Below are positions 3,077 to 32,223 of a stretch of DNA of 64,000 nucleotides, piece by piece (the stretch's first letter is position 1; each line of letters opens with the position of its first letter). A program made the translations under genes and the position numbers. The notes under the pieces were generated by a model, which was not told the DNA's origin, did not search any database, and saw only the letters and a program-made list of their open reading frames with translations. The stretch covers positions 11,922 through 75,921 of the forward strand of contig JBJOPW010000003.1 of NCBI GenBank assembly GCA_046050355.1. The letters are read 5' to 3'. This stretch comes from Candidatus Parcubacteria bacterium. GTDB taxonomy: Bacteria; Patescibacteriota; Minisyncoccia; Phycocordibacterales; UBA918.

Positions 3077-4162
3077 ATGTCAGAAGAAGTAGTAAACAGT
3101 GTAATGCATACACTCGCCGCCAACATTCCTGATTCTCCAAAAGAGGGTCAATTAGTAGAAGGTACAGTATCAGCCATCGGCCGCGCTCGTGTCTATGTCG
3201 ACCTCCCACCATTTGGTACTGGTCTCATCTTTGGTCGTGAGTACATGAACGCTCGCGACATCCTCCGCAAAGTCTCAGTTGGAGACACCATTGCGGCGAA
3301 GGTTGTTGACGTAAACAACAAGGATGGGTACATCGAGCTCTCACTCAAGGAAGCCCGTCAGGCCCTCATCTGGGCTGATGCCGAAGAAGCCGTGAAGAAG
3401 GGTACGGTTATGAGTCTTGAAGTGAAGGAGGCCAACAAGGGTGGTCTTATCATGGAATGGCAAGGTATCCAGGGCTTCCTCCCAGCTTCACAGCTTGGAC
3501 CAGACAATTACCCACGCGTTGATAACGGCGACAAGGACAAGATCCTTATGGCCCTTAACTCACTCGTTGGTAAGCATCTCGGTGTCGTCATGATCACCGC
3601 TGACCAGAAGGAGCACAAGCTCATCTTCTCAGAAAAGGGTCACCAGGAACGTGAAGAGAAGGGCGAAAAGGTTGGTAAGTACGAAGTGGGTGACGTCCTC
3701 TCGGGCGAAGTGACTGGTGCTGTTGACTTTGGCGTCTTTGTGAAGATTGAACAGGGTCTTGAAGGCCTCGTTCACATCTCTGAACTTGATTGGGGTCTTG
3801 TTGAAAATACTCGCGCCCTCTACAAGGTTGGCGACAAGGTGAAGGTCAAGGTGATTGAAGTGAAGGATGACAAGATTTCTCTCTCAATCAAGCAGCTCCG
3901 TGAAAACCCATGGACTGATGCCGCTCAAAAGTTCGCCAAGGATCAGGTCGTACCAGGTGTTGTTATCAAGTACAACAAGCACGGTGCGCTTGCGTCTATC
4001 CAAGAAGGTGTTGCTGGTCTCGTCCATATCTCTGAATTCGAATCAGAAGAAAAGATGAAGGCTACCCTCTCACTTGGTGGTGTCTACAAGTTCAAGATTT
4101 CTCTCTTTGAGCCATCTGAACAGCGTATGACGTTGACCTTCAAAGATGTAGCTCAGAGTTAG
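3077..4162 (+). CDS. rpsA: 30S ribosomal protein S1 (four S1 domains, short form)
   Basis: Repeated S1-domain pattern: G.lVeGtV..i....vyVDL, GDV..G.V......G.FV.I..G.EGLVHISE. Confidence 0.85.
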   Translation: MSEEVVNSVMHTLAANIPDSPKEGQLVEGTVSAIGRARVYVDLPPFGTGLIFGREYMNARDILRKVSVGDTIAAKVVDVNNKDGYIELSLKEARQALIWADAEEAVKKGTVMSLEVKEANKGGLIMEWQGIQGFLPASQLGPDNYPRVDNGDKDKILMALNSLVGKHLGVVMITADQKEHKLIFSEKGHQEREEKGEKVGKYEVGDVLSGEVTGAVDFGVFVKIEQGLEGLVHISELDWGLVENTRALYKVGDKVKVKVIEVKDDKISLSIKQLRENPWTDAAQKFAKDQVVPGVVIKYNKHGALASIQEGVAGLVHISEFESEEKMKATLSLGGVYKFKISLFEPSEQRMTLTFKDVAQS

Positions 4163-4184
4163 GTACTAACTCTCGCACAACAAA

Positions 4185-4207
4185 CCCCCGCGCCACAGGC
4201 GCGGGGG
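4185..4207. terminator. bidirectional rho-independent terminator between rpsA and pth
   Basis: cccccgcgcc-acag-gcgcggggg with A-run upstream and T-run downstream. Confidence 0.7.
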
Positions 4208-4215
4208 TTTGTTTG

Positions 4216-4800
4216 TTAGTTAAAACGGTTCATCGCGCGCTCCTTCCCTTCGGTCACCAAGGAGACAATCGCCTCAACCACCACCGGATACAGTGCTGTG
4301 TAGATTTCGTTTTCTTCGAGACTAATTTTACCAAGGACATATTGGGCCAGTTCCTCGCTCGTTGGTCGTATCGCCTGCCCCGTCTCACTACCGCGCGCTG
4401 CCACCCCAATCCGTACCCGGACGAAGTCTTTTGTCCCCAAGGTATCGATAATCGACGTCACGCCATTGTGACCACCAGCTCCATTACCAAACGAGATCTT
4501 AAAATCCCCCGCTGGTAGATCAACATCGTCATAGATAACGATGAGTTGGTTGTGTTCCCCTTTTTTGACGAGCTTTTTGACCGCATCCCCCGACTTATTC
4601 ATAAAGGTCTCTGGGTAGAGGACCGTGATAGCATACTCGCCAATGGTGCCTTCACTCACGCGCCCAAGATATTTTTTGCTTGGCATAGCCTCCGGCATAT
4701 CAAAGGCGGTCAGAAGCACGTCACATACGAGCCAACCGATATTGTGCCGCGTGTACTGGTATTTTGCTCCTGGATTCCCGAGCCCGACGATGTAGAACAT
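4216..4800 (-). CDS. pth: peptidyl-tRNA hydrolase
   Basis: MFYIVGLGNPG.KY..TRHNIG N-terminus, diagnostic of Pth. Confidence 0.9.
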   Translation of the reverse strand: MFYIVGLGNPGAKYQYTRHNIGWLVCDVLLTAFDMPEAMPSKKYLGRVSEGTIGEYAITVLYPETFMNKSGDAVKKLVKKGEHNQLIVIYDDVDLPAGDFKISFGNGAGGHNGVTSIIDTLGTKDFVRVRIGVAARGSETGQAIRPTSEELAQYVLGKISLEENEIYTALYPVVVEAIVSLVTEGKERAMNRFN

Positions 4801-8229: not shown

Positions 8230-9399
8230 ATGTCAGAACACATTATCACCGGCATTGATGTAGGCACCTTCCAAGTGAAGGTGGCGATTGTACGTGTCCC
8301 AAAACTCAAAGGTGAACGTGGATTACCGCAGATTATTGGCACTGGTTTTGCCGAGAGTCGCGGACTCCGCAATGGCTACATCATTAGTGAAGCTGACGTC
8401 GTACGCAGCATCAGAAGTGCTGTCGCCCAAGCCGAGAAAGCCGCCGGAGTAGATGTGAAGCGGGCCTACGTTTCAATTGGCTCAATTGGCCTTGACGAAG
8501 TAATCTCAACCGGTGAAGTGATTACTTCTCGCGCTGACTCAGAAATTACCAATATTGATATTGAAAAAGCCCAGCAAGACAGTGAGGATCGCATCATCGA
8601 CCATATCCCGAACCGTAAGATCATCCACGCTATTCCCCTACGTTATCGTGTCGATGGTGAGCTCGTCCTTGGTAAGCCCCAGGGCATGCGCGGGACGAAG
8701 CTTGAGGTAGACACCCTTTTCATCACCACCTTCGAGCAGCATCTGAATGATCTCATTGGTGCGGTCGAGCGTACCGGTATCTATGTCGAAGATGTGATGG
8801 CTTCTCCACTGGCCGCCTCCTTTGTCATCCTCTCAAAGGCTCAACGTCGCGCTGGTTGTATCCTCGCGAACATCGGCGCTGAAACAGTCTCAACCGTCGT
8901 TTTTGAGGACATGACACCCGTCTCACTGAAGGTCTTTCCGGTTGGTGCCAACGATATCACCAACGACATCGCGCTTGGACTTCGCATTCCACTTGAAGAA
9001 GCCGAAAAAGTAAAGCGCGGTGGTATGACCACGACCACCATCCCGAAAAAGAAACTTGAGGAGATTATTAATGCGCGCCTTAATGACATCTTTGAACTCA
9101 TTAGTCTTCATTTGAAGAAAATCAAAAAAGACGGACTCCTCCCCGCTGGCATCATCCTCACTGGTGGTGGCGCCACTACGCTTGGTATCCAAGAGCTCGC
9201 CCGCAACACCCTCAATCTCCCTGCTCGTATTGCCACCCTTGAGTTCGGTAAGAACACCAAAGTCCGCGACGCCTCCTGGGCAGTCGCCTACGGCCTCTGT
9301 ATGCTCGGTGCTAGTGATGGTGAGGAGACGACCGCAATTGGGGTAGTGAAGCAGACGAAACGAACTATTCTAGACTGGCTCTCCCAATTCCTCCCCTAG
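8230..9399 (+). CDS. ftsA: cell division protein FtsA
   Basis: GIDVGT actin-fold N-terminus, ~390 aa, immediately upstream of ftsZ. Confidence 0.85.
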   Translation: MSEHIITGIDVGTFQVKVAIVRVPKLKGERGLPQIIGTGFAESRGLRNGYIISEADVVRSIRSAVAQAEKAAGVDVKRAYVSIGSIGLDEVISTGEVITSRADSEITNIDIEKAQQDSEDRIIDHIPNRKIIHAIPLRYRVDGELVLGKPQGMRGTKLEVDTLFITTFEQHLNDLIGAVERTGIYVEDVMASPLAASFVILSKAQRRAGCILANIGAETVSTVVFEDMTPVSLKVFPVGANDITNDIALGLRIPLEEAEKVKRGGMTTTTIPKKKLEEIINARLNDIFELISLHLKKIKKDGLLPAGIILTGGGATTLGIQELARNTLNLPARIATLEFGKNTKVRDASWAVAYGLCMLGASDGEETTAIGVVKQTKRTILDWLSQFLP

Positions 9400-9759: not shown

Positions 9760-11016
9760 ATGGAACAGATTAAAACAGACGTTGAGTCATTCGCCCGCAT
9801 TCGTGTTGTGGGTGTTGGTGGTTCAGGCAACAACGCCGTGAACTACATGGTCGGCGCCAAAGTTAAAGGTGTTGAATTTATCGCAATCAATAGTGATGCC
9901 CAAGATCTCCATCACTCACTGGCGAAACGTAAGATCCATGTCGGCAAGAATCTCACTCGTGGTCTTGGTGCTGGCGGTAACCCAGACATGGGCCGACGTG
10001 CCGCTGAAGAAACACGCGAAGAAATTGCCAATGCCATCAAGGGTTCAGATATGATCTTTGTCACCTGTGGTATGGGAGGAGGAACCGGTACCGGTGCCGC
10101 TCCAGTCGTGGCGAAGATTGCTCGTGAGAGTGGTGCGCTCACCGTGGGTGTCGTCACGAAGCCCTTCCTCTTTGAAGGGCAGGAACGAATGCGCCTCGCT
10201 CTCCAAGGCATCGAGGAATTGAAAAAAGAAGTCGACGCACTCATCACCATTCCAAACGACCGCCTCCTTGCCATTGTTGACAAAGAGACTACTGTCAAAA
10301 GCGCCTTTGAGCAGTGCGACAATGTCCTCAAGCAAGCCGTTGAAGGTATCTCTGACCTTATCACTATGCCTGGTATCATTAACGTCGACTTCGCTGATAT
10401 TCGTAGCGTCATGGAGAACGCCGGTTCAGCCCTCATGGGTGTCGGCGTCTCAGCTGGCGAAAAGCGCGCTGAGGAAGCCGCCCGCGCCGCTATCAACTCA
10501 CCACTCCTTGAAGTATCAATCACCGGGGCGAAGGGTGTCCTCTTTGCGATTGCCGGTGGTGACGACCTTGGTATGCTCGAAATCCAGGACTCAGCACGAG
10601 TGATTACCGAATCAATTGATCCACACGCCAAGGTTATCTTTGGTGCGATCAAGGACGACAAACTCAAAAAGAACGAGGTGAAGGTGACGGTAATTGCGAC
10701 CGGCTTCCCTGAAGAATCAAGTGGACACCACAGCGCACCAATTGCTCGTCGTGCCCCCATAGCTGAACCATCACCAATTATGGCCGAAACCGAGGAGCCA
10801 GTAGCTGAACCAGTTCGTGGCCGTATCTTCAATTCACTCACGAACCCACGCCGCCAAGAAGTCGACGAAGCACCAGCACCAAAGGTAGACATGATGCCAG
10901 AGCCAAAGCCTGAACTCCCTCGCCGTGAACCCAAGCCAGTCGATCCCGTCGACGAAGACGATGAGGACGATTGGGGCGCCGTGCCGGCCTTCTTGCGTCG
11001 TTCAAAACTTAAATAA
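9760..11016 (+). CDS. ftsZ: cell division GTPase FtsZ
   Basis: [10 protein letters not shown] and [11 protein letters not shown] tubulin signature, disordered acidic C-tail. Confidence 0.95.
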
Positions 11017-11387
11017 AGTTTTGACGAGCAAGGGCCGGCGCGGCGCGGCGGACCGATGTGAGTCGCCCCTTCCTAGGGCGACGAAGCAGGCCGCCGGGGT
11101 CGGAAGTACTTAGATTTTTATGAACGTAGTGAAATAAAAAGCTTAGTAACTTCTGACCTGTTCCTGCATTTCTCCGAAGGAGCCGAACCAGCAAGCCGCA
11201 GCGATACGAACCGCTCCTTCCTAGAGCGGTGAGGCAGCGAGCCGGGTGAGAAATGGGACGGGACCCATTTCGCAAGACCTTGCCAGCTATCTTTTGAGTG
11301 AAAGCGAAAAAGTAGCGACAAGGTGTACTGAACCTGTAAGGTTCGACGGCATTCTCATAATTTAATTTCAAAACCCGATTCATGACA
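11017..11387 (+). other. structured non-coding region downstream of ftsZ (candidate sRNA or long 3' UTR) with two paralogous hairpins
   Basis: Two ~85-nt imperfect tandem units. Hairpins 11062-11082 and 11210-11230 have different, mutually compensatory stems but an identical loop, CUUCCUA. A further hairpin lies at 11251-11271. No ORF. Ends at terminator 11388-11420. Confidence 0.3.
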
Positions 11388-11420
11388 AACCCCGTACTCT
11401 TGAGTACGGGGTTTTGTTTC
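11388..11420. terminator. bidirectional terminator (ftsZ-downstream transcript / csoR-family gene)
   Basis: ccccgtactc-ttg-agtacgggg followed by TTTTGTTT. Confidence 0.7.
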
Positions 11421-11421
11421 C

Positions 11422-11661
11422 CTACAACTTCTTCACAATCGTCTCCAAGAGCATCGTCGTCTCCTCATTAGACCGCTTCCCACCACACTCCTTGAGCGAT
11501 AGCAACAGATACTCCTTCACACAGGCATCAAGCGCACCCTTGGCAGCCAAGAATTGCGGCACTGCATTCGTGCATGATGGCTGGCAGGTCTCGAGGTCAG
11601 TGCGGATTTTTTGCAGCTGCCCTTCAACCCGCTTCAGTCGGTTGACGATTGGTTTCATATG
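11422..11661 (-). CDS. CsoR/RcnR-family (DUF156) metal-sensing transcriptional repressor
   Basis: MKPIVNRLKRVEGQLQKIR...C...C: the RLKRIEGQ signature of the CsoR/RcnR/FrmR family. Start at ATG 11659-11661, which appears leaderless relative to the promoter palindrome. Alternative upstream start at 11712 would add an MYH N-terminus. Confidence 0.75.
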   Translation of the reverse strand, partial: HMKPIVNRLKRVEGQLQKIRTDLETCQPSCTNAVPQFLAAKGALDACVKEYLLLSLKECGGKRSNEETTMLLETIVKKL

Positions 11662-11663
11662 TG

Positions 11664-11694
11664 GACGAGTATACCCCCTGTGGGTATACTCGTC
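11664..11694. promoter_or_regulatory. CsoR-type operator: 13-5-13 perfect palindrome overlapping the -35/-10 of the repressor gene promoter
   Basis: gacgagtataccc-cctgt-gggtatactcgtc. On the minus strand it reads TTGACG-17 nt-TATACT, ending ~7 nt before the ATG. The ATACCC...GGGTAT core matches known CsoR boxes. Confidence 0.6.
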
Positions 11695-11742
11695 AACGCA
11701 AGCGTGGTACACTATGGGCCTAATTAAATTGATTGTTTTTGT

Positions 11743-12657
11743 ATGTTCGATCTCGTCATTATCGGCGGAGGACCAGCTGGCGTATCAGCTGGCGTCTATG
11801 CTGCTCGCAAGCGTTTGACCACGTGCTTCATCACCAAGGATTGGGGTGGCCAGAGTATTGTCTCAACCGATATCCAAAACTGGATTGGTACCCCTTCAAT
11901 TAGCGGCGACAAACTCGCTTCAGACCTCAAGGCCCACCTCCTCTCCTACGCCGGCGAATATGTGACGGTAAAGAACAACCTCGTCACCAACCTCACAAAG
12001 GGTACAGACACCCACACAGTAACTCTCGACAACGGCGAGACCATCGAAGCCCGTGCCATCCTCATTGCGTCAGGTTCAGCGCGACGTCGCCTCTCTATCC
12101 CTGGCGCTGATACCTACGAACACAAAGGGCTCACCTACTGTGCTTCGTGTGATGGTCCACTGTTTGCTGGACAGGACGTCGTTGTCGTAGGTGGCGGGAA
12201 CGCCGGTTTTGAAACCGCCGCCCAGCTCCTCGCTTACACAAAAAGTGTCATCCTCCTCTCTCGCAGTGAGTTTAAGGCCGACGCCATCACGGTCGAGAAG
12301 GTGCTCGCCCATCCGAACATGACTGCCCTCACCCACGCCGAACCAACTGCAGTCTTGGGCGAACAGTTCGTCACCGGTCTCACGTACAAGACTGCTGATG
12401 GTGAAGAAAAGACCATCGCGGTTGTTGGTATCTTTGTCGAAGCGGGTATGCTCCCGAATACCACCTACGCCAAAGACGCCGTCACCCTCGATGCTTTTGG
12501 TCGGGTCGAAATTGATCCGTGGACACAGCGCACTACCACCCCTGGTATCTGGGCCGCTGGTGACTGTACGAATGTGAAGTACCACCAGAACAACATCGCC
12601 GCTGGCGACGCTGTCCGCGCGCTTGAGGACATCTATGTCACATTGAAGGCAAGATAA
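11743..12657 (+). CDS. trxB: thioredoxin-disulfide reductase
   Basis: VIIGGGPAG FAD motif, CASCDG redox-active CxxC, VVVVGGGNAG NADPH motif. Confidence 0.85.
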   Translation: MFDLVIIGGGPAGVSAGVYAARKRLTTCFITKDWGGQSIVSTDIQNWIGTPSISGDKLASDLKAHLLSYAGEYVTVKNNLVTNLTKGTDTHTVTLDNGETIEARAILIASGSARRRLSIPGADTYEHKGLTYCASCDGPLFAGQDVVVVGGGNAGFETAAQLLAYTKSVILLSRSEFKADAITVEKVLAHPNMTALTHAEPTAVLGEQFVTGLTYKTADGEEKTIAVVGIFVEAGMLPNTTYAKDAVTLDAFGRVEIDPWTQRTTTPGIWAAGDCTNVKYHQNNIAAGDAVRALEDIYVTLKAR

Positions 12658-22850: not shown

Positions 22851-23354
22851 ATGACCAATAATATTGAGCGGCTGGGTCACAGTAAAGACAATAAGGTTTT
22901 ATACCTTGATCTTGACTCCTCACATGCAATCACCCATTTTGCCAAACATAAAAACTTAAAAGCTCTCATAAGTGAGCACATCAGCAACATAGTACTTGAT
23001 ACACCGATAGTTCGTGTTGAAATCGACACAGGGAGTGAAGTAGGTCTCTGTGACTTGGTTACTACCAACGAAACAGACGAGATAGTGTATGCGAAGCGCC
23101 CGCTCCGACATACCTACTCTAGGTTTGCTAAAAACCGCCAGAGCGAACCAACGACCTGGTTTGTACTAGATATTCGTAAACAGCAAAGTGGCAATTATTT
23201 TCTGTACACAGCTTTTATTGGTCGTCTAACCCCTTCGTTTCCAGGTGGAGACTTTCTTCCTGAGCAGAGTCGAGACTTCTGGAGTAATCATGCTCTCGTT
23301 TGGGGTTCACAAGATGTTCTTCCAGATAGCGAAACCACCAACTGTCCTTGGTAA
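22851..23354 (+). CDS. hypothetical protein
   Basis: 167-aa ORF, 4 nt after tsaD. No motif recognised. Confidence 0.4.
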   Translation: MTNNIERLGHSKDNKVLYLDLDSSHAITHFAKHKNLKALISEHISNIVLDTPIVRVEIDTGSEVGLCDLVTTNETDEIVYAKRPLRHTYSRFAKNRQSEPTTWFVLDIRKQQSGNYFLYTAFIGRLTPSFPGGDFLPEQSRDFWSNHALVWGSQDVLPDSETTNCPW

Positions 23355-23498
23355 GGTTACGTACTTGCACAACAATACGTCTGTGCTATATTCAAACTAT
23401 AACCCATGAAGCACACATTTGTAACCTATTTCTATTTTTGGTTTACGAAGCGGGAACACCGTGGTGCTTTTGTGATGAAATAGAAATAGAAAGATAAT

Positions 23499-23545
23499 CA
23501 CAAAACAGTGCGGGGTTCCCTACGGGAACCCCGCACTGTTTTGTG
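23499..23545. terminator. perfect 22-bp stem hairpin (bidirectional terminator-like)
   Basis: cacaaaacagtgcggggttccc-tac-gggaaccccgcactgttttgtg. Confidence 0.7.
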
Positions 23546-23550
23546 TAGGC

Positions 23551-23591
23551 CGCTCCTCTTGACCTAGGGTACCCCTAGGTCAAGAGGAGCG
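23551..23591. repeat. second perfect palindrome (19-bp stem, tac loop) adjacent to the first
   Basis: cgctcctcttgacctaggg-tac-ccctaggtcaagaggagcg. Confidence 0.6.
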
Positions 23592-23641
23592 ACCGGCAAC
23601 CACGCCGGAAGCGCAAAAATGTTCCAACACGGAGACGATAC

Positions 23642-23833
23642 ATGACGTTTGTTCCAACTGGTAACCAAGGTCCATTTCCGCCCAAACCTGGGAAGAGGCT
23701 GGGACCAAGTCGCGAACGTGGCGAGCACCTCAACCGCACCCATGACGGGGCCGATAAACTTGGTACAACCGAACCGCAACAGCCATCACCTGAGGATGAC
23801 ATCGTGGGGTGGCCTCGGGCAGATCAATTGTAG
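23642..23833 (+). CDS. putative small hydrophilic protein (63 aa) in a hairpin-insulated unit
   Basis: GGAGA Shine-Dalgarno 6 nt upstream of ATG. Flanked by palindromes upstream and terminator 23855-23884 downstream. Pro/Gly-rich, no TM. Confidence 0.3.
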   Translation: MTFVPTGNQGPFPPKPGKRLGPSRERGEHLNRTHDGADKLGTTEPQQPSPEDDIVGWPRADQL

Positions 23834-23854
23834 GTCTATAAGCAGTACTCATTC

Positions 23855-23884
23855 GCCCGCGCACCTGCGCGGGCTTTCTTTTTG
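23855..23884 (+). terminator. rho-independent terminator
   Basis: gcccgcgc-acct-gcgcgggc followed by TTTCTTTTT. Confidence 0.75.
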
Positions 23885-23886
23885 GT

Positions 23887-23937
23887 CGAGGTCTTGCCTC
23901 GTCTCAGCATATGTACCACGTACGAGGCAAGACCTCG
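23887..23937. repeat. 16-bp inverted repeat with 19-nt loop upstream of valS
   Basis: cgaggtcttgcctcgt ... acgaggcaagacctcg. Confidence 0.55.
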
Positions 23938-24052
23938 TACTTGATATTTCCGGTTTAATTTTCAATATTCAATGTTCTCTATTCTATATTTTTGTGCTAC
24001 GATGCGACTACTATGAGTGAGTTTATTCCGTTAGAAATCAACGTTTATTATT

Positions 24053-26269
24053 ATGGAAAACAATACAAATAACATGAATGGGGCTTCTCAAAGCCCAATT
24101 TCTAACGGGACGAGTCAAGGTCAAAGTACCACCCCAGCCCTCTTTACCAGTCCCTATAATCCGGCCGACCACGAAGCCCGTATCTATGAGCTATGGGAGC
24201 AGTCAGGTTATTTCAATCCAGACAATTTGCCCGGGGACCGGACTGAGCCTTTTGCTGTGGTGATGCCACCACCAAACGCCAATGCCTCACTCCATGCTGG
24301 CCATGCCCTGTTTGTGACCATTGAAGACATCATGATTCGCTACGAGCGTATGAGGGGTAAGAAGGCTGTGTGGTTCCCAGGCTCAGACCATGCTGGTTTT
24401 GAGACCCAAGTGGTGTACGAAAAGCATCTTGAGAAAGAGGGTCGTTCACGTTTCCAGATGACTCGCGAAGAACTGTATGGTGAAATCTACGATTTCGTAC
24501 AAAAGAATAAAAGCATGATGCAGAACCAGGTACGCTCACTTGGTGCATCCTGCGACTGGTCACGCCAGCTTTTTACCCTTGATGATCGCGTGAAGCGCAT
24601 CGTCTATGAGACCTTCAAACAGCTCGAAACCGACGAACTCCTCTATCGTGGTGCTCGTTCGAGTAACTGGTGCCCGAAGCATCAGACCTCATTCTCGAAT
24701 CTTGAAGTAGAACACGAGGAACGAACCGAACCATTTTATTACTTTCAATACGGACCATTTGTGATTGGTACGGCTCGTCCGGAGACCAAGTTCGGTGACA
24801 AGTATGTCGTCATGCACCCAGATGATGCGCGGTACGCACAGTACACCCACGGACAACAAATCGAGATGGAGTGGATCAATGGGCCGATTACCGCCACTGT
24901 CATCAAAGACGAAGCCGGTGACCCGGAGCTCGGTACCGGTGTAATGACTATCACCCCCTGGCATTCTGGTATCGACTTTGAAATCGCGAAGCGTCACAAT
25001 CTAGACTACGAACAGATCATCGACTGGCGCGGGAAGCTCCTCCCGATTGCCGGTGAGTTCGCTGGCCAGGATATTCGTGAAGCCCGTAAGTTGATTGTCG
25101 AGAAGCTCAAAGAAAAGGGACTCCTTGTCAAAATTGATGAAGGGTACCACCACGCGGTCCCCTGCTGCTACAAGTGTGGTCGTGAGATTGAACCACAGAT
25201 TAAAGAGCAGTGGTTCGTCAACATGAAGCCACTGGCTGCCAAAGCTATTGAAGCTCTTGATGCTGGTCGCTACAGCTTCGTCACAGAACGTGATGAGCGC
25301 GTGTTCCGTCATTGGCTCTCAAATATCGAAGACTGGCCAATCGCCCGCCAGATTGCCTGGGGTATTCCCATTCCTGCCAAGGTCTGTACCGTATGTCATC
25401 ACGGCATGGTCGACCTCGACAATACCATCACTGCCTGCACCAAGTGCGGTGGTACAGTCGAGCAGGAACAAGATACCTTTGATACTTGGTTCTCCTCTGG
25501 CCAGTGGCCACTGTGTGTGACCGACTTTGGTGGTGAGGGTAGCGACTTCAAAACTTTCTACCCCACCGCAGTGATGGAAACGGGCAAAGACATAGTCTTC
25601 TTTTGGGTGGCGCGGATGGTGATGCTCGGTCTCTACCGCACCGGTGAAGTACCATTTAAGAAAATCTACCTCCACGGTATGGTGCGGGACAAGCACGGCA
25701 AAAAGATGAGTAAGAGTAAAGGCAACGTGATAGCACCGAGCGAGATTCAAGAAAAGTACGGGACTGATGCACTCCGCATGGGTCTCATGATGAACAATGT
25801 GCCCGGGACCGATATGAACCTCGATCCAGACAAGGTCAATGCGCACAAGAAGTTCGCCAACAAACTCTGGAACATCACCCGCTTTGTGCTTGATAACACC
25901 GCCGACTACACACCACAGCCACCGCATACCGCCGCTGACCAAGCCTTCGAGGACGCAAATCTCCACCCGATGGTTGCGGAGATTAACAAAGACATGGCCG
26001 CTGACCGTTTTGACCTCGCTGCCGAAAAGATCTACCACTTCGTTTGGGACCACTTCGCGAGTCAGGTAATCGAAGAGAGTAAGATACTTCTCGCTGGTTC
26101 ACCCGCAGAACGTGCATCCCGCCAGCGCATGCTCACCCATTACCTCGTAACGTCACTCAAACTCCTCCACCCATTTATGCCGTTTGTGACCGAGGCCATC
26201 TGGCAGGAGCTACCAGCACACATGAAAGATGCAGAGATACTGATGATTGCATCTTGGCCAAAGGCATAA
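24053..26269 (+). CDS. valS: valyl-tRNA synthetase (short form lacking C-terminal coiled-coil)
   Basis: HIGH-class motif (PPPNANASLHAGHA) and KMSKS; editing-domain and Zn-knuckle (CCYKCG) regions. 738 aa. Confidence 0.8.
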   Translation: MENNTNNMNGASQSPISNGTSQGQSTTPALFTSPYNPADHEARIYELWEQSGYFNPDNLPGDRTEPFAVVMPPPNANASLHAGHALFVTIEDIMIRYERMRGKKAVWFPGSDHAGFETQVVYEKHLEKEGRSRFQMTREELYGEIYDFVQKNKSMMQNQVRSLGASCDWSRQLFTLDDRVKRIVYETFKQLETDELLYRGARSSNWCPKHQTSFSNLEVEHEERTEPFYYFQYGPFVIGTARPETKFGDKYVVMHPDDARYAQYTHGQQIEMEWINGPITATVIKDEAGDPELGTGVMTITPWHSGIDFEIAKRHNLDYEQIIDWRGKLLPIAGEFAGQDIREARKLIVEKLKEKGLLVKIDEGYHHAVPCCYKCGREIEPQIKEQWFVNMKPLAAKAIEALDAGRYSFVTERDERVFRHWLSNIEDWPIARQIAWGIPIPAKVCTVCHHGMVDLDNTITACTKCGGTVEQEQDTFDTWFSSGQWPLCVTDFGGEGSDFKTFYPTAVMETGKDIVFFWVARMVMLGLYRTGEVPFKKIYLHGMVRDKHGKKMSKSKGNVIAPSEIQEKYGTDALRMGLMMNNVPGTDMNLDPDKVNAHKKFANKLWNITRFVLDNTADYTPQPPHTAADQAFEDANLHPMVAEINKDMAADRFDLAAEKIYHFVWDHFASQVIEESKILLAGSPAERASRQRMLTHYLVTSLKLLHPFMPFVTEAIWQELPAHMKDAEILMIASWPKA

Positions 26270-26384
26270 CGTGGTACGATCGACTATTTTGGAAATCGCC
26301 TCAAATGAGGCGATTTCCTTTTCCCCGTATCGGGCTTTCTCGCCACTATTCGCAAGACTACGCCTGCTACAATGTTAAGACACT

Positions 26385-27083
26385 ATGGACATTACTCCAG
26401 CAGCCTTCGCTATCGCTGCCGTCTCAGGACTGGTACCGGCGCTATTTTGGCTTTGGTTCTGGCTTCGCGAAGATAAGGTAAAACCTGAACCAATCCTCCT
26501 TATCGTCATCACCTTTATTGCCGGCATGGCAGTAGTACCACTTGCCCTTCCACTCCAGAAGCTTGCTATTGAATTATATATTGGCACCAGTCTGGTGGTA
26601 GCGTGGGTCATTATTGAAGAAACCCTCAAATATGCGCTCGCTGTCCTCATTATCCTTTGGAACCGAGCCGTTGATGAGCCGATCGATATGATTATCTACA
26701 TGATCACCATCGCGCTTGGGTTTGCGGCGCTTGAAAATACCCTCTTTCTTCTCTCACCAGTCTCGGGTGGCGATTACATGAATTCGACCCTCACCGGTTC
26801 CTTCCGCTTTTTAGGCGCATCACTTCTCCATATCCTCGCCTCGGGGACTGTCGGAGTCTTCCTCGCTTTTGCCTTTTATAAGAGCAAACTCACACAAATC
26901 CTCTTTGGCATGCTGGGGTTATGCCTGGCTATTGTATTGCATGCTCTCTTTAACTTTTTTATAATTGATGCAAGTGGAGAAACTATCCTCGGTGTGTTTC
27001 TCTTCGTCTGGATAGGAATTATTATCCTGTTCTTCTTATTCGAAAAAGTCAAAGCTACCGAACGGAAGCAATTAGTACCTTAG
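26385..27083 (+). CDS. prsW: PrsW-family intramembrane metalloprotease
   Basis: EETLKY (EExxK), FAALENTLF (FxxxE), HILASG (HxxxxxxG) motifs in a polytopic membrane protein. Confidence 0.65.
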   Translation: MDITPAAFAIAAVSGLVPALFWLWFWLREDKVKPEPILLIVITFIAGMAVVPLALPLQKLAIELYIGTSLVVAWVIIEETLKYALAVLIILWNRAVDEPIDMIIYMITIALGFAALENTLFLLSPVSGGDYMNSTLTGSFRFLGASLLHILASGTVGVFLAFAFYKSKLTQILFGMLGLCLAIVLHALFNFFIIDASGETILGVFLFVWIGIIILFFLFEKVKATERKQLVP

Positions 27084-27093
27084 TTCCCTCTTT

Positions 27094-27609
27094 ATGAAAA
27101 AACCATCATTCCTCGACCGCCTCACTGGCAATGTACAACACGAAGACTACGATCGTGTTTTAGCTGACGACCACCATTTTGGCGACGACGAGGCTGAAGC
27201 AGTGGATGAATACGGGGAAGACGAAGACACCTGGCAAGACGGCAACACCCACGATCATACCCCCCAAGAAGGCGAACTACCGGTAGATATGTACCAAACA
27301 GCTGACGCTATTGTGATTCGTGCCTTGGTAGCAGGTGTCAGTCCAAACGATCTTGATATCGCCATCACGCGCGATATGGTCACTATTAAAGGTATGCGAG
27401 AAGAATACCAAGAATCATCAGACGACAACTACTTCCACCGCGAGCTCTTCTGGGGTTCATTCTCGCGGACCCTTCTCCTTCCTGAAGAAGTTGTTATCGA
27501 TGAAGCAGATGCCCAAGAAAAGCACGGCCTCCTTGAAATCCGTTTGCCAAAGCTTGATAAAAATCGCAGTACACAGCTGAGGGTTAAATCACAAGTTCAT
27601 AAGGCATAA
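27094..27609 (+). CDS. Hsp20/alpha-crystallin family small heat-shock protein
   Basis: Alpha-crystallin domain pattern (VD.Y.T.D...I.A.V.GV...D..I......V.I.G.R) and C-terminal LLEIRLPK. Confidence 0.8.
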   Translation: MKKPSFLDRLTGNVQHEDYDRVLADDHHFGDDEAEAVDEYGEDEDTWQDGNTHDHTPQEGELPVDMYQTADAIVIRALVAGVSPNDLDIAITRDMVTIKGMREEYQESSDDNYFHRELFWGSFSRTLLLPEEVVIDEADAQEKHGLLEIRLPKLDKNRSTQLRVKSQVHKA

Positions 27610-27610
27610 G

Positions 27611-27639
27611 AAAAGGCGGTCCCACGGGACCGCCTTTTT
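27611..27639. terminator. bidirectional terminator
   Basis: aaaaggcggtccc-acg-ggaccgcctttt. Confidence 0.75.
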
Positions 27640-27644
27640 CATTT

Positions 27645-27950
27645 TCACCAGCCATCGCGCGCCGCAAGATACTCCTTGCAGAACGACATTTGCTGCGAAG
27701 TCGTGAGCGGAATGTAATGCTGACGGCAACCGTAGTTCACCTCCGCATGCTCTTCATCATGATACGAAATGATGAGTTGCTTTTCCGTCACGATCGTCGT
27801 GCATGGCTGGAGACGAAACATTGTCGCCCAGTCGCGAATGATTTGTCGCGCGACCTGAAACTCCGCCACCGGCTGGAGCAATCGCTCGAGAGTCAGACAT
27901 CGAGAATCAGTACTCATCTGCAAAGAACCATCCATCTTGCTTTCCTCCAT
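27645..27950 (-). CDS. hypothetical Cys-containing small protein
   Basis: 101-aa ORF bounded by terminators. No family recognised. Confidence 0.35.
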   Translation of the reverse strand: MEESKMDGSLQMSTDSRCLTLERLLQPVAEFQVARQIIRDWATMFRLQPCTTIVTEKQLIISYHDEEHAEVNYGCRQHYIPLTTSQQMSFCKEYLAARDGW

Positions 27951-28004
27951 CTGTTGGGCACATACCCTGTTTGAACATTTCCGAGCCTCGTCATTTCACA
28001 ACCG

Positions 28005-28032
28005 AAAATCCGCCTCGGACGGCGGATTTTGA
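28005..28032. terminator. bidirectional hairpin terminator
   Basis: aaaatccgcc-tcggac-ggcggatttt. Confidence 0.6.
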
Positions 28033-28182
28033 ATGTCATCGGAGGAGATGCTCAAAAGCTACCGTCTGGTGCGGATAGTAGATACACAGGATGAGGAGAA
28101 ACTACTCCAGGTGGCGATGTGGTGGGTGAGCTTCATAGTGGTTTTATGATACTCCTTCAAATATTATTTGTCTAGATACTAC

Positions 28183-28509
28183 TCACAGCCCCAGTACTAC
28201 AGCAACTGTCTGGTCAACTTTTGATTGCACTTCCGACTCTAAACGACCAAGCTGTCCTAATACAATTTTTCGATCGAGGGTCGCAATTTTGTCACAGATT
28301 ATGTATGAAGCAATTTTAATCCCATTTTGTTGTGATGGCGTGATGGGTACTACAGCTACAGCTGGCGATTTATGTTTTGAGGAAATGAAGACGACAATAA
28401 CATCACTACCCTTAGCCTGCTTTGATAATACTAACGCCGGTCTCACTTTCTGTCCTGAAAGGTCGGTAAACGGAAACGGAATAAGAACAATATCACCACG
28501 CTTAGGCAT
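28183..28509 (-). CDS. mazF: MazF/PemK-family endoribonuclease toxin
   Basis: MPKRGDIVLIPFPFTDLSGQKVRPALVLS ... ICDKIATLD.K matches the PemK/MazF signature. Confidence 0.85.
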   Translation of the reverse strand: MPKRGDIVLIPFPFTDLSGQKVRPALVLSKQAKGSDVIVVFISSKHKSPAVAVVPITPSQQNGIKIASYIICDKIATLDRKIVLGQLGRLESEVQSKVDQTVAVVLGL

Positions 28510-28753
28510 ATTTTTGTTTAATATCAGCCAGAGTATATGTATCTGGTTCGTCGTTCAAAAAATCAAAACTGTTCGAGTAGGCATTTATATTCGTGATATC
28601 ACTAATATCTGCACGATACTGGGTTGGAAATTTAATAAGCACTGCTTCAGGTTTATCATGGCGCCCAATCACAAAATTCGCACCCTCAGTGGCTACGAGG
28701 TCTACCAAATCAGCGATTTTTTTGCGTGCTGTAGTGGTTGAAATGATTTTCAT
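28502..28753 (-). CDS. Phd/YefM-family antitoxin (with C-terminal extension)
   Basis: MKIISTTTARKKIADLV...VIGRHDKPEAVLI matches YefM/Phd. The stop overlaps the mazF start by 8 nt. The annotated longer start (28813) adds 20 aa that are not conserved. Confidence 0.75.
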   Translation of the reverse strand: MKIISTTTARKKIADLVDLVATEGANFVIGRHDKPEAVLIKFPTQYRADISDITNINAYSNSFDFLNDEPDTYTLADIKQKYA

Positions 28754-28861
28754 ATCAATATTGTACATTTTGTACAAAATACTGCAAGTCAAACAAACAT
28801 GTTCAGTAAACACTGCCCAACTCGGATTGTTCCGGCCCTAAAGGGAACCCCGGAACAGTCT

Positions 28862-28880
28862 TTCGAGCCCGCCCCCAAGC
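28862..28880 (+). repeat. copy of tRNA-Phe 3' end (T-loop to acceptor), plus-strand orientation
   Basis: TTCGAGCCCGCCCCCAAGC is the exact reverse complement of 29121-29139 inside the minus-strand tRNA-Phe gene. Confidence 0.7.
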
Positions 28881-29035
28881 TACAAATAGCAACGACCATG
28901 AAACATGCGTTTCGTACAAACGGGCTCGACCCAGAATCGCGGTTATTTATTTCACTGCGTTCATAAACAGACTCGCGTTCTTGGTCGGCTCCTCCTCGTT
29001 TTGCTCGCCCCAGCTCACAAAACATCGTCCGGAGC

Positions 29036-29080
29036 TTCGAGCCCGCCCCGGACGACATACTCATGTCGTCCTCCCAAGCA
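29036..29080 (+). repeat. second copy of tRNA-Phe 3' end, split by a 22-nt hairpin insertion
   Basis: TTCGAGCCCGCCCC-[ggacgacatactcatgtcgtcc]-TCCCAAGCA. Confidence 0.65.
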
Positions 29081-29126
29081 CATATGAAAAAACTCCCAAC
29101 TAGGAGTTTTTTCATATGTGCTTGGG
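29073..29126. repeat. perfect 24-bp-arm palindrome spanning the tRNA-Phe 3' end and its trailer
   Basis: cccaagcacatatgaaaaaactcc-caacta-ggagttttttcatatgtgcttggg. The right arm is part of the tRNA acceptor stem. Confidence 0.7.
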
Positions 29127-29191
29127 GGCGGGCTCGAACCGCCGACCCCTTCCTCTTCAGGGAAATGCTCTACCAACTGAGCTACCCAAGC
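29119..29191 (-). tRNA. tRNA-Phe (anticodon GAA)
   Basis: Minus-strand cloverleaf: acceptor GCTTGGG/CCCAAGC, D-arm GCTC-AGTTGGTA-GAGC, anticodon loop CTGAAGA, T-arm GGCGG-TTCGAGC-CCGCC, discriminator A. Position 37 is G. CCA not encoded. Confidence 0.8.
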
Positions 29192-29235
29192 AGTGAGGCA
29201 CATTGTACCTGAATTTAAGTTTTTTTCAACTTTAA

Positions 29236-29691
29236 TTACTGCCCCTCCCCACTAGGAAATCGAACGCTTTCAACAAGATAAGAAGTCTTCCCTCTCCATG
29301 GCCGAATCCCATATCTTTGCGAATATTTTATCTCTATGATGTCGCCTGTCCTTGCCGCTTCTTCAAGCATAGAAATTAGCAAATAGTTATCGGCACTTTT
29401 CTCATCAATAGAAAAATCCCAACTTTCTACGTATGCACCACTTTGTGTTACCCCAAGACTACCCTCATATGTTTTCCATAGCAAACCTTTATCACTCAAT
29501 TTTACAACCTGTCCTATTCGTATTCCCTCACTATATTCAAAATCATAGGCAACTAAACCAATTGCAATTGGAATGAGGGTCGTAAATAGAATCACTGACA
29601 ACGGTATACATAATACCAACAACCATGTCCACATTGTAGATTTTGATTTTCTACGTTTCTTTTTTTCACTTATAACTTCTGGAGTTTCCAT
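29236..29691 (-). CDS. hypothetical membrane-anchored protein, AT-rich, upstream of tRNA-Phe
   Basis: 151-aa ORF. Basic N-terminus plus TM then a soluble domain. Low GC. Confidence 0.45.
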   Translation of the reverse strand: METPEVISEKKKRRKSKSTMWTWLLVLCIPLSVILFTTLIPIAIGLVAYDFEYSEGIRIGQVVKLSDKGLLWKTYEGSLGVTQSGAYVESWDFSIDEKSADNYLLISMLEEAARTGDIIEIKYSQRYGIRPWRGKTSYLVESVRFPSGEGQ

Positions 29692-29699
29692 AATTATTT

Positions 29700-29999
29700 T
29701 TATTGGCCCATATACGTCTCAATCAGGCTTTCTATGACGGTTGTGGGAACAGTAACACCATTTACCTCAATACCTGTCCCGGTACCCGTTGTGACGCCAA
29801 TAAAGGCATTGTACAAGTAGTAATAGGCAAGCAGTGGAATACCGAGAAGTATCGTGTACCAAATCACCTTAAAGATGAAGCGGCGGCGCTCACGCCGTTC
29901 TTGGCGAATCAAGAGCTCATTGTTCTGTCGCACCAGTTCTTGATTCTCCCGCAACAGCTTAATAATAAGCTCGTGTTGATCAGTTGGCATTGGGTCCAT
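29700..29999 (-). CDS. hypothetical small membrane protein with N-terminal coiled-coil
   Basis: 99-aa ORF. ELVRQNNELLIRQERRERRR then one TM. AT-rich. Confidence 0.4.
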   Translation of the reverse strand: MDPMPTDQHELIIKLLRENQELVRQNNELLIRQERRERRRFIFKVIWYTILLGIPLLAYYYLYNAFIGVTTGTGTGIEVNGVTVPTTVIESLIETYMGQ

Positions 30000-30008
30000 A
30001 TGCTCTCA

Positions 30009-31187
30009 TTATACATCCCTTTGCTGGTGCGCGATGGATTGATGTAGAAAGACAAACGCGAGCATTGCGAGGGTACCGGCGACTAGACCTGAAGCCAAAA
30101 AGGCAGTCTCGAGCGACCAGACGTCAGCTACCCAACCGATAACCGGTGACACAATAGCAAAAAATAATCGTGTGTAGAGTGAGTTTAGAGAAATGACGGT
30201 AGCCCGAATATCAGATGGTGTTTGTTTGTGAAGGAAGTCGAGCATAATTGGATGCAAAATTCCACGAAGTAACCACGCGAGAGACATCACCGCCACCGCG
30301 GCCAGACCAATCCCAAAACTAAGGAGTATAAATACCATTCCCACTACCCCACCGCTGAGGCCAAACAATAGTGAAAAGCCAAGACGTCGCTGCAAACGAT
30401 GCGCAATATACGAACCAAATGCAGTTATTGCATTATAAGAAGCCCAGAGCACTCCAAATAACACCAAAGGAACACCTATCTCTTGCCAATATGGTTGTGC
30501 CATCCAGACGAGCAATAAACCCGACGAAAATAATATGCCCGTAAAGATATTCATATGAAGAATAGTTTTGTTCTCATACAGCGCATACCGGAGTGCTCCC
30601 AATAAATCTTTCCGTTGACGATGTCCAATCTCCATCTTTGGTTCTTTAAGCAAAAAAGTAAGCGGTATCGAACAAAGCATCACAAAAAACTGTATATATA
30701 AAACCACCGTAACTGAGTACCAGCTAGCCAAGAGACCCCCTAAGATTGCTGCTGAAGCTTCTGAGAGCCGTGCAATACTGAGCATGCGACCTTCAATCTT
30801 GGTGTGTTTATCAGTAGCGTTGTATTGCTTAAGGGTGTCATACAACAAAGCTGAGTCGGCTCCAGATATAAACGATATCGAAACAGCTAACAATAACTCT
30901 GCGGTAGCAAAACCCCAAAAGTCACCCGATAACGCATACGCGAGGTACCCGAGACTGCCGAATACCATACCAATGACTAGCGAATATTTGCGCCCGAAAC
31001 GATCAGCGAAATAACCCGATGGCACTTCCAGTGCAACGATAGCTACCGAAAAAAGTACTTGGAGCAAGAAGACATCTTGCATCGATAATCCCACATCGAG
31101 CCAATAGAGCGTAATGATGGGAATCATCAATAAAAAGGCTCGAATTGCTCGAACTATGAGAAGAAGTGTAATTTGTCGTTGCATCAA
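30009..31187 (-). CDS. MFS transporter
   Basis: 12-TM profile; GYFADRFGRKYSL matches MFS motif A (G.a.DrfGrr). Confidence 0.8.
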   Translation of the reverse strand: MMQRQITLLLIVRAIRAFLLMIPIITLYWLDVGLSMQDVFLLQVLFSVAIVALEVPSGYFADRFGRKYSLVIGMVFGSLGYLAYALSGDFWGFATAELLLAVSISFISGADSALLYDTLKQYNATDKHTKIEGRMLSIARLSEASAAILGGLLASWYSVTVVLYIQFFVMLCSIPLTFLLKEPKMEIGHRQRKDLLGALRYALYENKTILHMNIFTGILFSSGLLLVWMAQPYWQEIGVPLVLFGVLWASYNAITAFGSYIAHRLQRRLGFSLLFGLSGGVVGMVFILLSFGIGLAAVAVMSLAWLLRGILHPIMLDFLHKQTPSDIRATVISLNSLYTRLFFAIVSPVIGWVADVWSLETAFLASGLVAGTLAMLAFVFLHQSIAHQQRDV

Positions 31188-31246
31188 ACAATCGTATCAC
31201 AAACCCTCACTTCCCGACTATTTTTGTGCTACGATACCCCGTACAA

Positions 31247-31318
31247 GCCCCCGTAGCACAACGGATAGTGCAGTCCCGTCCTAAGGGAACGATCTGGGTT
31301 CGATTCCTGGCGAGGGCA
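31247..31318 (+). tRNA. tRNA-Arg (anticodon CCU), with one C-A acceptor mismatch and one anticodon-stem mismatch
   Basis: GCCCCCG-TA-GCAC-AACGGATA-GTGC-A-GTCCC-GTCCTAA-GGGAA-CGAT-CTGGG-TTCGATT-CCTGG-CGAGGGC-A, followed by terminator 31332-31368. Confidence 0.65.
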
Positions 31319-31331
31319 CACAAACGTAAAA

Positions 31332-31368
31332 GAAAAGCACTCTTTATCTAAAGAGTGCTTTTCTTTTA
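31332..31368 (+). terminator. rho-independent terminator after tRNA-Arg
   Basis: aaaagcactcttta-tct-aaagagtgctttt followed by CTTTT. Confidence 0.75.
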
Positions 31369-31523
31369 GTAAGCAATCAGTATTGCTTACGTACACTTGT
31401 GTGAGACGGAACGATGTTTTCGCTATTCCTAATGCCAAAACGAGTGAGTCGGGGTCGAGAACACTTAGTAGTTTAGAAGCGTAGCGAACTAATATACTTA
31501 GTGATTCGTGACTATTGTTAAAC

Positions 31524-31557
31524 AACAAAACCTTTCTGTTAACAGAAAGGTTTTGTT
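31524..31557. terminator. perfect 34-bp palindrome, likely bidirectional terminator downstream of the glutaredoxin gene
   Basis: aacaaaacctttctgtt/aacagaaaggttttgtt. Confidence 0.6.
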
Positions 31558-31573
31558 TATGGTTGCTCAAAAC

Positions 31574-31810
31574 TTACACTCCCAGGAGTTCCTTCACCTT
31601 GGCTTCATCAAATCCCACAATCACATCGTCTTCGATACGAATTACGGGCACACCCATCTGACCGGTCATATCTACCATCTCCTTACGCTTTTCAAGATCA
31701 CTCGCCACGTCGTGTTCAGTAAAGGCGATGTTATGCTCAGCAAAAAAATCCTTGGCCATGTGGCAGTAGTGGCAAACCGGAGTACTATAAATGGTGACAG
31801 TTTTACTCAT
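31574..31810 (-). CDS. glutaredoxin-like protein (NrdH/Grx family)
   Basis: MSKTVTIYSTPVCHYCHMAK: thioredoxin-fold CxxC N-terminus, ~78 aa. The ATG at 31810 is preferred over the annotated 31855. Confidence 0.75.
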   Translation of the reverse strand: MSKTVTIYSTPVCHYCHMAKDFFAEHNIAFTEHDVASDLEKRKEMVDMTGQMGVPVIRIEDDVIVGFDEAKVKELLGV

Positions 31811-31845
31811 ATACAATTTCTTATGTTTATGACAATAAGTATACC

Positions 31846-32223
31846 TTACCGCCAAAAAATATACCAGGGAGGGGTATCCGGCGTTGGTGGTAGTGGTGTC
31901 ACATCACTGTCACTTTTCTCTTCATCTACAATGATCACCACCTGCTCGCCTGGTTGCGCAACATCAAAGTTGCGACGCATTTCAGCCTCCATTCCCCGCT
32001 CACTGCTTAGGTATTCAACTTTATCTTTGATATGTTCCTTGCGTCCGACTAACTCAGATACCCGTACTTCCGCTTCAGCTCGGCGGTTAGCCATGTCTCG
32101 CTCAATAGTATACCGATCAATTACCACCCACAACAAAAAAATACACACGGTACCGAGTATACCCACCACCCACCAGGATTTGAGCACGCCGCGCCAACTG
32201 CGCTTTTCGTAAAACTGCAACAT
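31846..32223 (-). CDS. FtsB/DivIC-like septum formation protein (TM + coiled coil)
   Basis: N-terminal TM followed by a coiled-coil (AEAEVRVSELVGRKEHIKDKVEYL). Architecture only. Confidence 0.4.
   Translation of the reverse strand: MLQFYEKRSWRGVLKSWWVVGILGTVCIFLLWVVIDRYTIERDMANRRAEAEVRVSELVGRKEHIKDKVEYLSSERGMEAEMRRNFDVAQPGEQVVIIVDEEKSDSDVTPLPPTPDTPPWYIFWR

Follow-up and report, generated by a model that had tools for sequence, protein, structure and literature searches.

The window (the whole 64-kb stretch of DNA analysed in this study) carries ftsA (8230-9399) and ftsZ (9760-11016, plus strand), followed by a gene for a csoR-like repressor (11422-11712, minus strand) and a trxB-like gene (11743-12657, plus strand). 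The sequence between ftsZ and the csoR-like gene (11017-11420) folds with a minimum free energy of -159.8 kcal/mol (z = -6.2 against shuffles), and with the 57 terminal nt of ftsZ included (10960-11175) z against shuffles falls to -9.25, because the segment directly behind the stop codon, herewith designated A′ (11016-11046), is the reverse complement of the CDS end. An earlier note on this DNA had described a structured region of ~390 nt with two hairpins, and both were indeed found, GTCGCCC-CTTCCTA-GGGCGAC at 11062-11082 and ACCGCTC-CTTCCTA-GAGCGGT at 11210-11230, these two being the only such hairpins in the 64-kb window. The blocks shared around them represent true homology, since R1, a covariance model of the M1+M3 unit (see below) constructed from relatives, scores 137.7 bits for unit 1 (11029-11169, plus strand) and 55.8 bits for unit 2 (11177-11289, plus strand, M1 part only). 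The terminator predicted to end the region was likewise seen in the fold at 11390-11419 (plus strand; CCCCGUACUC-UUGA-GUACGGGG followed by a U-tract) as an intrinsic terminator common to the convergent csoR-like gene; a consensus terminator scanner gave no call at this site, probably because an extension of the stem consumes the T-run. The idea of a single RNA special to ftsZ had to be given up, and the region is instead a mosaic of modules, M1, M3 and M2, that recur mostly 3′ of tRNA and tmRNA genes and are missing at 28 of 74 related ftsZ loci.

The Rfam scan, one of the checks proposed for this region, identified no family matching it. With Rfam 15 at the gathering threshold, the whole window gave four tRNAs and nothing else, and a search of 10900-11500 at E<=10 gave chance-level matches only, the best being CRISPR-DR43 with 25.6 bits against a threshold of 35. 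This sub-threshold match corresponds to the apical M3 (11113-11141, minus strand), carries no repeat array and is most likely due to chance. Ten related loci yielded tRNA and tmRNA only, and the family has no counterpart in Rfam at either gathering or permissive thresholds. Nor was a description of the element found in the literature searched, also under the name of an 'ftsZ-DE' motif. A hammerhead ribozyme was rejected after comparison by hand, the junction strands (GAAA / GG / none) misfitting its core, and other self-cleaving ribozymes, covered by the Rfam scans, were unsupported.

Modular organization of the array downstream of ftsZ

A total of 80 related ftsZ loci were collected, which share blocks with the window downstream of ftsZ in varying number and order. 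Three modules were set apart: M1, consisting of helix P2, a G-A internal loop and P3, the latter being the CUUCCUA hairpin; M3, a hairpin of ~60 nt; and M2, of ~100 nt. In the window all the parts of the array lie on the plus strand. The last ~40 nt of ftsZ including its stop codon (A, 10976-11016) form in the fold the 5′ strand of a long hairpin, H0, with the stop codon in the loop, and A′ forms the 3′ strand; judged from the fold and from comparison of loci, A′ begins the inserted element. It is followed by M1a (11047-11097), assigned by its R1 match and by covariation and composed of P2, an internal loop that carries tandem G-A pairs, and P3 (11062-11082, loop CUUCCUA), and by M3a (11098-11158), delimited by covariation, a long hairpin with a conserved CUUAG/CUUAG box, conserved G-U and A-G near the base and an AU-rich top. 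At 11157-11180 stands a displaced former ftsZ end (pseudo-A2), which reads P-V-P-A-F-L-R-R-S and is distinguished from the real end by synonymous differences; the variation of the pseudo-end is 3-nt periodic in alignment columns 141-151. Next to it are a remnant of a second A′ (GAACCAGC) together with M1b (11181-11246), composed of P2, an internal loop and P3b (11210-11230, loop CUUCCUA) and matched by R1 over model positions 1-70, and then M2b (11245-11345), in which GGUGAGAA-hairpin-CGCAAGA is followed by a covarying stem that encloses an inner hairpin and, after GUACUG, by a further hairpin with UGUAA as its loop. M2 gave 72 nhmmer matches, in which compensatory stem changes are evident, and the counterpart of M2b in the related locus L003 is 91% identical. 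Comparison with the pseudo-ends of L004 and L005 suggests that 11346-11360 (..GGCAUUCUC..) is the decayed remnant of an older ftsZ end.

Outside the ftsZ locus, a third M1+M3 copy was detected at 31387-31524 (plus strand, R1 78.2 bits), 68 nt 3′ of tRNA-Arg(cct) (31247-31319), and a diverged member at 28918-29080 (minus strand; R1 match at 28918-29025 with 23.2 bits) 3′ of tRNA-Phe (29191-29118). The tRNA-Arg(cct)-linked unit (31320-31530) lies between two terminators with a small hairpin, GUAAGCAAUCAGUAUUGCUUAC, ahead of it, and a 14-nt near-complement of the tRNA-Arg end and trailer also precedes the unit at 31387-31524. Downstream of tRNA-Phe (28800-29120, minus strand), a near-perfect palindrome of ~27+27 nt with the tRNA acceptor 3′ strand and terminator is followed by two diverged elements, each opening with the complement of the tRNA 3′ end. 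A weak R1 match at 23479-23605 was discarded as merely a pair of palindromic terminator-like hairpins; these two adjoining long perfect palindromes (23479-23600; stems of 17 bp and 20 bp) lie between two ORFs and are unrelated to the modules.

The M1+M3 unit, a previously undescribed, strongly structured module of ~120 nt, was identified with R1 in 43 of the 80 related ftsZ loci, and a total of 132 R1 matches were obtained from 100 metagenome loci. For 29 ftsZ-linked units, RNAalifold indicated compensatory changes in 23 of 29 pairs. When a curated structure of 35 pairs was applied to these 29 sequences, 92% of the cells were paired, against 76% for shuffles and 29-44% for slid partners, and changes on both sides were found in 25 of the 35 pairs. 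Among the 132 metagenome matches, the level of pairing was 93.1%, both sides changed in 33 of the 35 pairs, and none of 500 shuffles was as good as the alignment. The covariation in these 29 ftsZ-linked and 132 metagenome homologues is strong, in good agreement with the earlier proposal that the two hairpins are paralogous parts of a structure kept by compensatory change. For the metagenome set, G-U and U-G combinations (206) exceed A-C and C-A combinations (44), which identifies the sense strand as the folding strand, whether in the form of RNA or as DNA in single-stranded form; one G-U is conserved in 116 of the 132 matches, and the neighbouring A-G is conserved as well. Compensatory changes beyond controls combined with strand-specific G-U, the general mark of structured non-coding RNAs, are thus both present in this family. 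One contig (CAXRCZ010000007.1, 127 kb; loci L015 and L016) carries the same ftsZ locus and unit twice in inverted arrangement (23062-32288, and 94429-103655 reversed), so that one has to assume a large inverted duplication or else an artefact of the assembly.

Displaced gene ends at ftsZ and at tRNA and tmRNA genes

The 15 C-terminal residues of FtsZ are invariant in 78 loci while the synonymous sites vary, and in 16 loci A′ follows the synonymous choices of the real ftsZ end, the partner bases being located ~70 nt downstream. The H0 partner strand covaries in these 16 loci with the third positions of the Gly-Ala-Val codons: the combination with A′ is CG in 9, UA in 5 and GC in 2 cases for Gly; AU in 5, CG in 4, GC in 4 and UA in 2 for Ala; and UA in 8, CG in 3, and GC, AU and UG in one each for Val. 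According to the earlier note, loss of the region in relatives that retain ftsZ would speak against a functional structure, and such loss is seen by half: the FtsZ C-terminus is invariant in the 78 loci, whereas the downstream array is wholly different even at 95-97% FtsZ identity.

In 46 ftsZ loci bearing a unit, the median A′ score was 12 and a pseudo-end was identified in 39, whereas the 28 unit-less loci carry a plain terminator, with an A′ score of 7, equal to chance, and a pseudo-end in 3. Because these empty sites have no A′ above chance and mostly no pseudo-end, A′, the core and the displaced end form a single inserted entity. In at least 20 loci, the pseudo-ends still read as an intact FtsZ-end peptide (11 residues) written in other synonymous codons, and the Ser codon differs between pseudo-end and real end, AGC versus UCA being among the cases. 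Since the reading is intact yet the codons differ from those of the real end, the pseudo-ends must have evolved as coding sequence in another lineage. Recent events and stacking can be recognised in three loci. A near-perfect direct repeat of 38 nt flanks a 150-nt insert in L073, four remnants are stacked in L002, and in L003 (95% FtsZ identity) an extra unit with its own ftsZ end lies upstream of a real end, A′ and M1a that resemble those of the window. An RNA switch in which A′ alternates between the real and the displaced end was also considered and found no support, as A′ tracks the synonymous sites of the real end and not those of the displaced end; a closing helix with the displaced end scored barely better than mismatched partners.

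At tRNA loci, the order is tRNA, trailer, terminator, often a small conserved hairpin (Hc), A′, M1, and M3 ending in GUGACC, after which the tRNA 3′ end occurs for a second time, again with a trailer and a terminator behind it. T-loop position 57 (TTC|GAAUC) is the exact starting point of this displaced copy, which often agrees with the gene at 18-20 of 20 positions. A′ is here the complement of the acceptor 3′ strand, the T-stem 3′ strand and the T-loop, or of the last tRNA bases and the trailer. A match between A′ and the tRNA of the same unit was seen in 53 of 63 cases, whereas mismatched partners gave 5 of 288; for a displaced direct copy, the corresponding counts are 31 of 63 units and 1 of 288 controls. 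An 18-nt copy of the 3′ end was identified downstream for 51 of the 217 tRNA and tmRNA genes in the fetched loci, mostly 127-400 nt away and in a few cases further, and if the reading given below is true, as a rough estimate about a quarter of the tRNA genes would be affected, besides tmRNA and ftsZ. The upstream strand is not part of a pseudo-tRNA, i.e., a duplicate with an insertion in the T-loop, because the T-loop of tRNA-Phe reads UUCGAGC and the upstream strand, GCUCGAA, complements this sequence instead of repeating it.

In the first data set, each of the 72 nhmmer matches has the orientation of the upstream gene, and those not linked to ftsZ are located 73-124 nt 3′ of a tRNA gene. After an unbiased scan of metagenome contigs with the M3 pattern, we identified at least 120 loci, and 114 of the matches listed are not at a contig edge. 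A same-strand tRNA gene of any isotype is present less than 450 nt upstream of 78 (68%) of these 114 listed matches and ftsZ upstream of 3, while several others follow tmRNA (confirmed by Rfam for L143). Because placement at tRNA and tmRNA genes dominates the metagenome matches, ftsZ is a minority habitat of a tRNA/tmRNA-associated family. Units were also found after sequences ending in ...CUCGGCGCAC or ...GCCUGCGCAG (L106:8541-9312; L116:1930-2054; upstream in L093 and L114), which received no ARAGORN or Rfam call and may be divergent stable-RNA genes.

Interpretation of the array and rival explanations

With a probability of about 0.58, we interpret the region as two small integrative elements without genes that stand in tandem at the ftsZ 3′ end together with remnants, the stack having grown by accretion. 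An element of this kind would bring its own copy of the target 3′ end, which would become the working end of the gene, and the A′ of the element would pair with this new gene end into a long hairpin; the core of the element would consist of M1+M3, of M2 or of a mosaic of such modules. Recombination inside the 3′ end of the gene would bring about the integration, the crossover at tRNA and tmRNA genes falling precisely within the T-loop (TTC|GAAUC) or else on the 3′ end, and the old gene end would be pushed downstream and stay there as a direct repeat, each newcomer pushing the earlier elements further out. Both CUUCCUA hairpins would be the P3 arms of two cores, separately acquired or recombined, and the difference in their stems within the same framework would follow because these arms belong to two separate cores of one family. 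We infer that the integration is reversible and site-specific and is catalysed in trans by an enzyme encoded outside the element, and also that the core is made as RNA, the core 3′ of ftsZ lying inside the ftsZ transcription unit; the location of tRNA-linked units behind a terminator counts against transcription of the core. The core most likely serves the element itself, for instance as a recombination or processing arm, rather than the regulation of ftsZ. A benefit to the host could be an alternative, as the unit is kept long-term 3′ of ftsZ in about 60% of the loci.

No recombinase or transposase tied to the units was found, and the elements, 150-250 bp in length and without ORF, contain no integrase gene. 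The same sites are used by two larger islands, in which the small units are distal and adjoin the displaced tRNA end: a 5.45-kb island at tRNA-Tyr in L120, with a gene for a large serine recombinase (its stop codon inside the tRNA-Tyr 3′ end) and a Schlafen-like gene, and a 5.5-kb island in L107 with a type III R-M system. The large serine recombinase was nevertheless rejected as the mobiliser, as four further loci with members of this tRNA-overlapping family (L201-L204) have neither unit nor direct repeat. The genes of this recombinase family are invariably convergent with a tRNA gene for Tyr or Lys, the 3′ part of which they overlap (L120:4303-5832; L201:8378-9991; L203:9001-10572; L204:231-1787); the recombinase ORF of L201 encloses the complete tRNA-Tyr on the opposite strand. 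A RAYT-like Y1 transposase was also discarded as the mobiliser, the REP hairpins flanking its gene being unrelated to the modules. The RAYT-like genes are common in the phylum, single and syntenic in the order secA - rayT - tyrS - nusB - rnc (L203:18740-19570; L205, L207 and L209 around 3900-4700), with GTAG-type REP hairpins, CGTAGAGGTTTAACCTCTACG, to either side. Non-autonomous elements derived from IS200/IS605 (PATE) have a left and a right subterminal hairpin, which a Y1 transposase cuts beside a short target motif without producing a duplication; in our family the junctions are located at hairpin feet after TTC, CAC or ACC, and a cognate transposase was not found. No free or circular form was seen. 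A phage origin was rejected, with no pattern matches in viral contigs and no blastn match in phage genomes.

A point against the model of gene-less integrative elements is that it gives no route for one scaffold to gain a matching end and an antisense copy for each tRNA isotype. Retargeting of one scaffold to every tRNA isotype, tmRNA and ftsZ would be accounted for if the M1+M3 or M2 scaffold together with A′ formed a guide RNA or a folded guide DNA that programs an enzyme encoded elsewhere, A′ base-pairing with the 3′ end of a chosen conserved gene and leading to a precise and reversible 'end-replacement' integration, a proposal that we hold to be rather improbable. Slightly less improbable, though still unlikely, is that the folds act as single-stranded DNA, being the end hairpins of a non-autonomous element that is moved by a strand-specific enzyme such as a HUH transposase of the IS200/IS605 or REP-like type, or a recombinase of the integron- or CTX-like type working on folded DNA. 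The asymmetry of pairing is strand-specific and the helix irregularities are conserved, which speaks in favour, and both junctions are located at hairpin bases (TTC|G paired to GAA of A′, and ACC|G at the M3 base); the terminator insulates tRNA-linked units from tRNA transcription, the A:A′ helix would, as RNA, compete with tRNA folding, and candidate enzymes, the RAYT-like proteins, are commonly encoded in the phylum. The single, syntenic state of the RAYT genes and the unrelated GTAG-type REPs at their flanks do not fit a role in mobilising the units, however, and no IS200-type gene was found near any unit. The G-U and A-G pairs and the junction conservation are equally typical of RNA, and the array 3′ of ftsZ must be transcribed. 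In another doubtful explanation, about as unlikely as the preceding one or marginally more so, the array is a cis-acting 3′-UTR element of the host, the last 13 codons of ftsZ and A′ forming a helix that buries the stop codon and the repeats being local duplications; helix and downstream arms would control the stability or processing (for instance by RNase III) of the mRNA 3′ end or the termination of FtsZ translation. As no terminator separates ftsZ from the array, the two must be co-transcribed; the covariation of synonymous sites of the ftsZ end with A′, the z value of -9.25 for the helix including the ftsZ end, and the presence of a unit at 46 of 74 related loci are all consistent with it. 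A dedicated function in ftsZ expression is, however, difficult to reconcile with the occurrence of the same modules mostly 3′ of tRNA and tmRNA genes, with the 28 of 74 ftsZ loci that have a plain terminator without A′, with arrays that differ wholly among genomes of 95-97% identical FtsZ, and with the foreign sets of synonymous codons in the displaced ends.

The function suggested in the earlier note was that of a trans-acting small RNA, the CUUCCUA loops of which would act by pairing with AGGAAG sequences of the Shine-Dalgarno type or by titrating a protein. The two loops are indeed identical, CUUCCU is complementary to AGGAAG or AGGAGG, and UUCCUA is seen again in 14 of the 29 ftsZ-linked units. 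Of the 108 other units, though, only 11 have it, the loop being missing in about 90% of the tRNA-linked ones, P3 ranges from 8 to more than 30 nt in length, and in many units its loop is of 3 nt instead of UUCCUA; a loop that is not conserved across the family is not what an anti-Shine-Dalgarno RNA would carry. The proposed search for genes with AGGAAG-type sites also came back empty in the window, with AGGAAG upstream of 0 of 36 genes and GGAG or AGGA upstream of 2 of 36, and we regard this function as very improbable. Apart from this question, the near absence of Shine-Dalgarno motifs (2 of 36 long ORFs) and the TATAAT/TATACT-like hexamers closely preceding several starts suggest that initiation in this genome is leaderless or independent of such motifs. 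A coding function deserves practically no credence. The earlier statement that the region contains no ORF overlooked one of 124 aa that spans the whole of it on the minus strand (11009-11383), and this might be taken for a protein gene (read from 11383 to 11009), but the ORF has no Pfam match, is not retained in the closest relatives L002 and L003 (longest open stretches of 65 and 86 codons), and has the repeat units, 148 nt apart, in different frames, the variation following base pairing and not codons.

Relation to known systems and significance

tDNA islands are described as restoring their targets and displacing target fragments, with newcomers pushing older elements outward (PMC4383910; bioRxiv 10.1101/2020.12.28.424599). 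With such islands (the Islander model, and tycheposon-type accretion in Prochlorococcus), the elements identified in this study share the 3′ part of tRNA and tmRNA genes as target, the crossover in the T-loop, the restored gene, the displaced fragment that marks the far end as a direct repeat, and the stacks of partial tRNAs (PMC4383910; 10.1101/2020.12.28.424599). In our family the upstream tRNAs are intact, and the junction falls on T-loop position 57 or else on the 3′ end; in the window the target is ftsZ, whose 15 C-terminal residues are intact and invariant, and the displaced fragment forms the distal direct repeat at 11157-11180. Unlike tDNA islands, the present elements are only ~150-250 bp long, carry neither an integrase gene nor any other, bear an antisense copy of the target end beside a covarying structured core, and in one lineage have the 3′ end of a protein gene, ftsZ, as the target.

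Integron cassettes with attC sites are promoter-less, lack a recombinase of their own and are stacked in one orientation at a fixed site; in attC, a long and imperfect inverted repeat encloses a variable structured centre, with folding on one strand, and empty as well as cargo-bearing versions exist. The elements share with cassettes the promoter-less and recombinase-less stacking in one orientation at a fixed site, the inverted repeat folded on one strand around a variable structured centre, and the occurrence of both empty and cargo-bearing versions. They differ in having neither R''/R' cores (RYYYAAC/GTTRRRY) nor an intI/attI platform, and, in contrast to attC, their inverted repeat copies the end of the target gene itself, with the crossover placed at its inner instead of its outer edge. 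Inspection of junction sequences by eye revealed no RYYYAAC/GTTRRRY cores, and the gene calls for the loci examined, a part of the 200 loci being annotated, included no tyrosine recombinase. REP/BIME, BOX and ERIC sequences are short, multi-copy, modular and hairpin-forming, lie just 3′ of genes in one orientation and are transcribed in 3′ ends. Our elements are also short, multi-copy, modular hairpins just after genes, but do not belong to REP/BIME, the REPs around RAYT genes being CGTAGAGGTTTAACCTCTACG hairpins unrelated to M1, M3 and M2; REPs are not known to copy the end of the adjoining gene or to displace it. A MITE has constant terminal inverted repeats and a short target-site duplication, and the elements do not conform to it, since A′ changes with each target and the direct repeat consists of 12-38 nt of the target end.

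The bridge/seek RNA of IS110 and the omega RNAs of IscB/TnpB combine a conserved scaffold with a variable target-complementary segment and are encoded at the element end. The scaffold described here is likewise joined to a variable target-complementary segment, but no gene of these types is found nearby, the segment of 12-35 nt pairs with the element's own copy of the target, and there is no Rfam match. Small RNAs derived from 3′ external transcribed spacers of tRNAs or from mRNA 3′ UTRs are located directly downstream on the sense strand, as are our units behind tRNA or coding genes; unlike these RNAs, most of the tRNA-linked units lie behind a terminator, and the flanks show insertion signatures.

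A potentially important feature is the target-matched antisense segment beside a conserved scaffold, and machinery that reads such an antisense copy of 12-35 nt could be a new programmable integration system. For annotators, 'conserved 3′-UTR RNAs' in these genomes may be arms of mobile elements. If our reading is true, two or three new structured RNA or DNA motifs would be added beyond Rfam, the synonymous sites of an essential coding sequence would co-evolve with downstream non-coding DNA, and the ultra-small genomes of Patescibacteria would hold many gene-less mobile elements that rewrite the ends of essential genes while leaving these genes unbroken.
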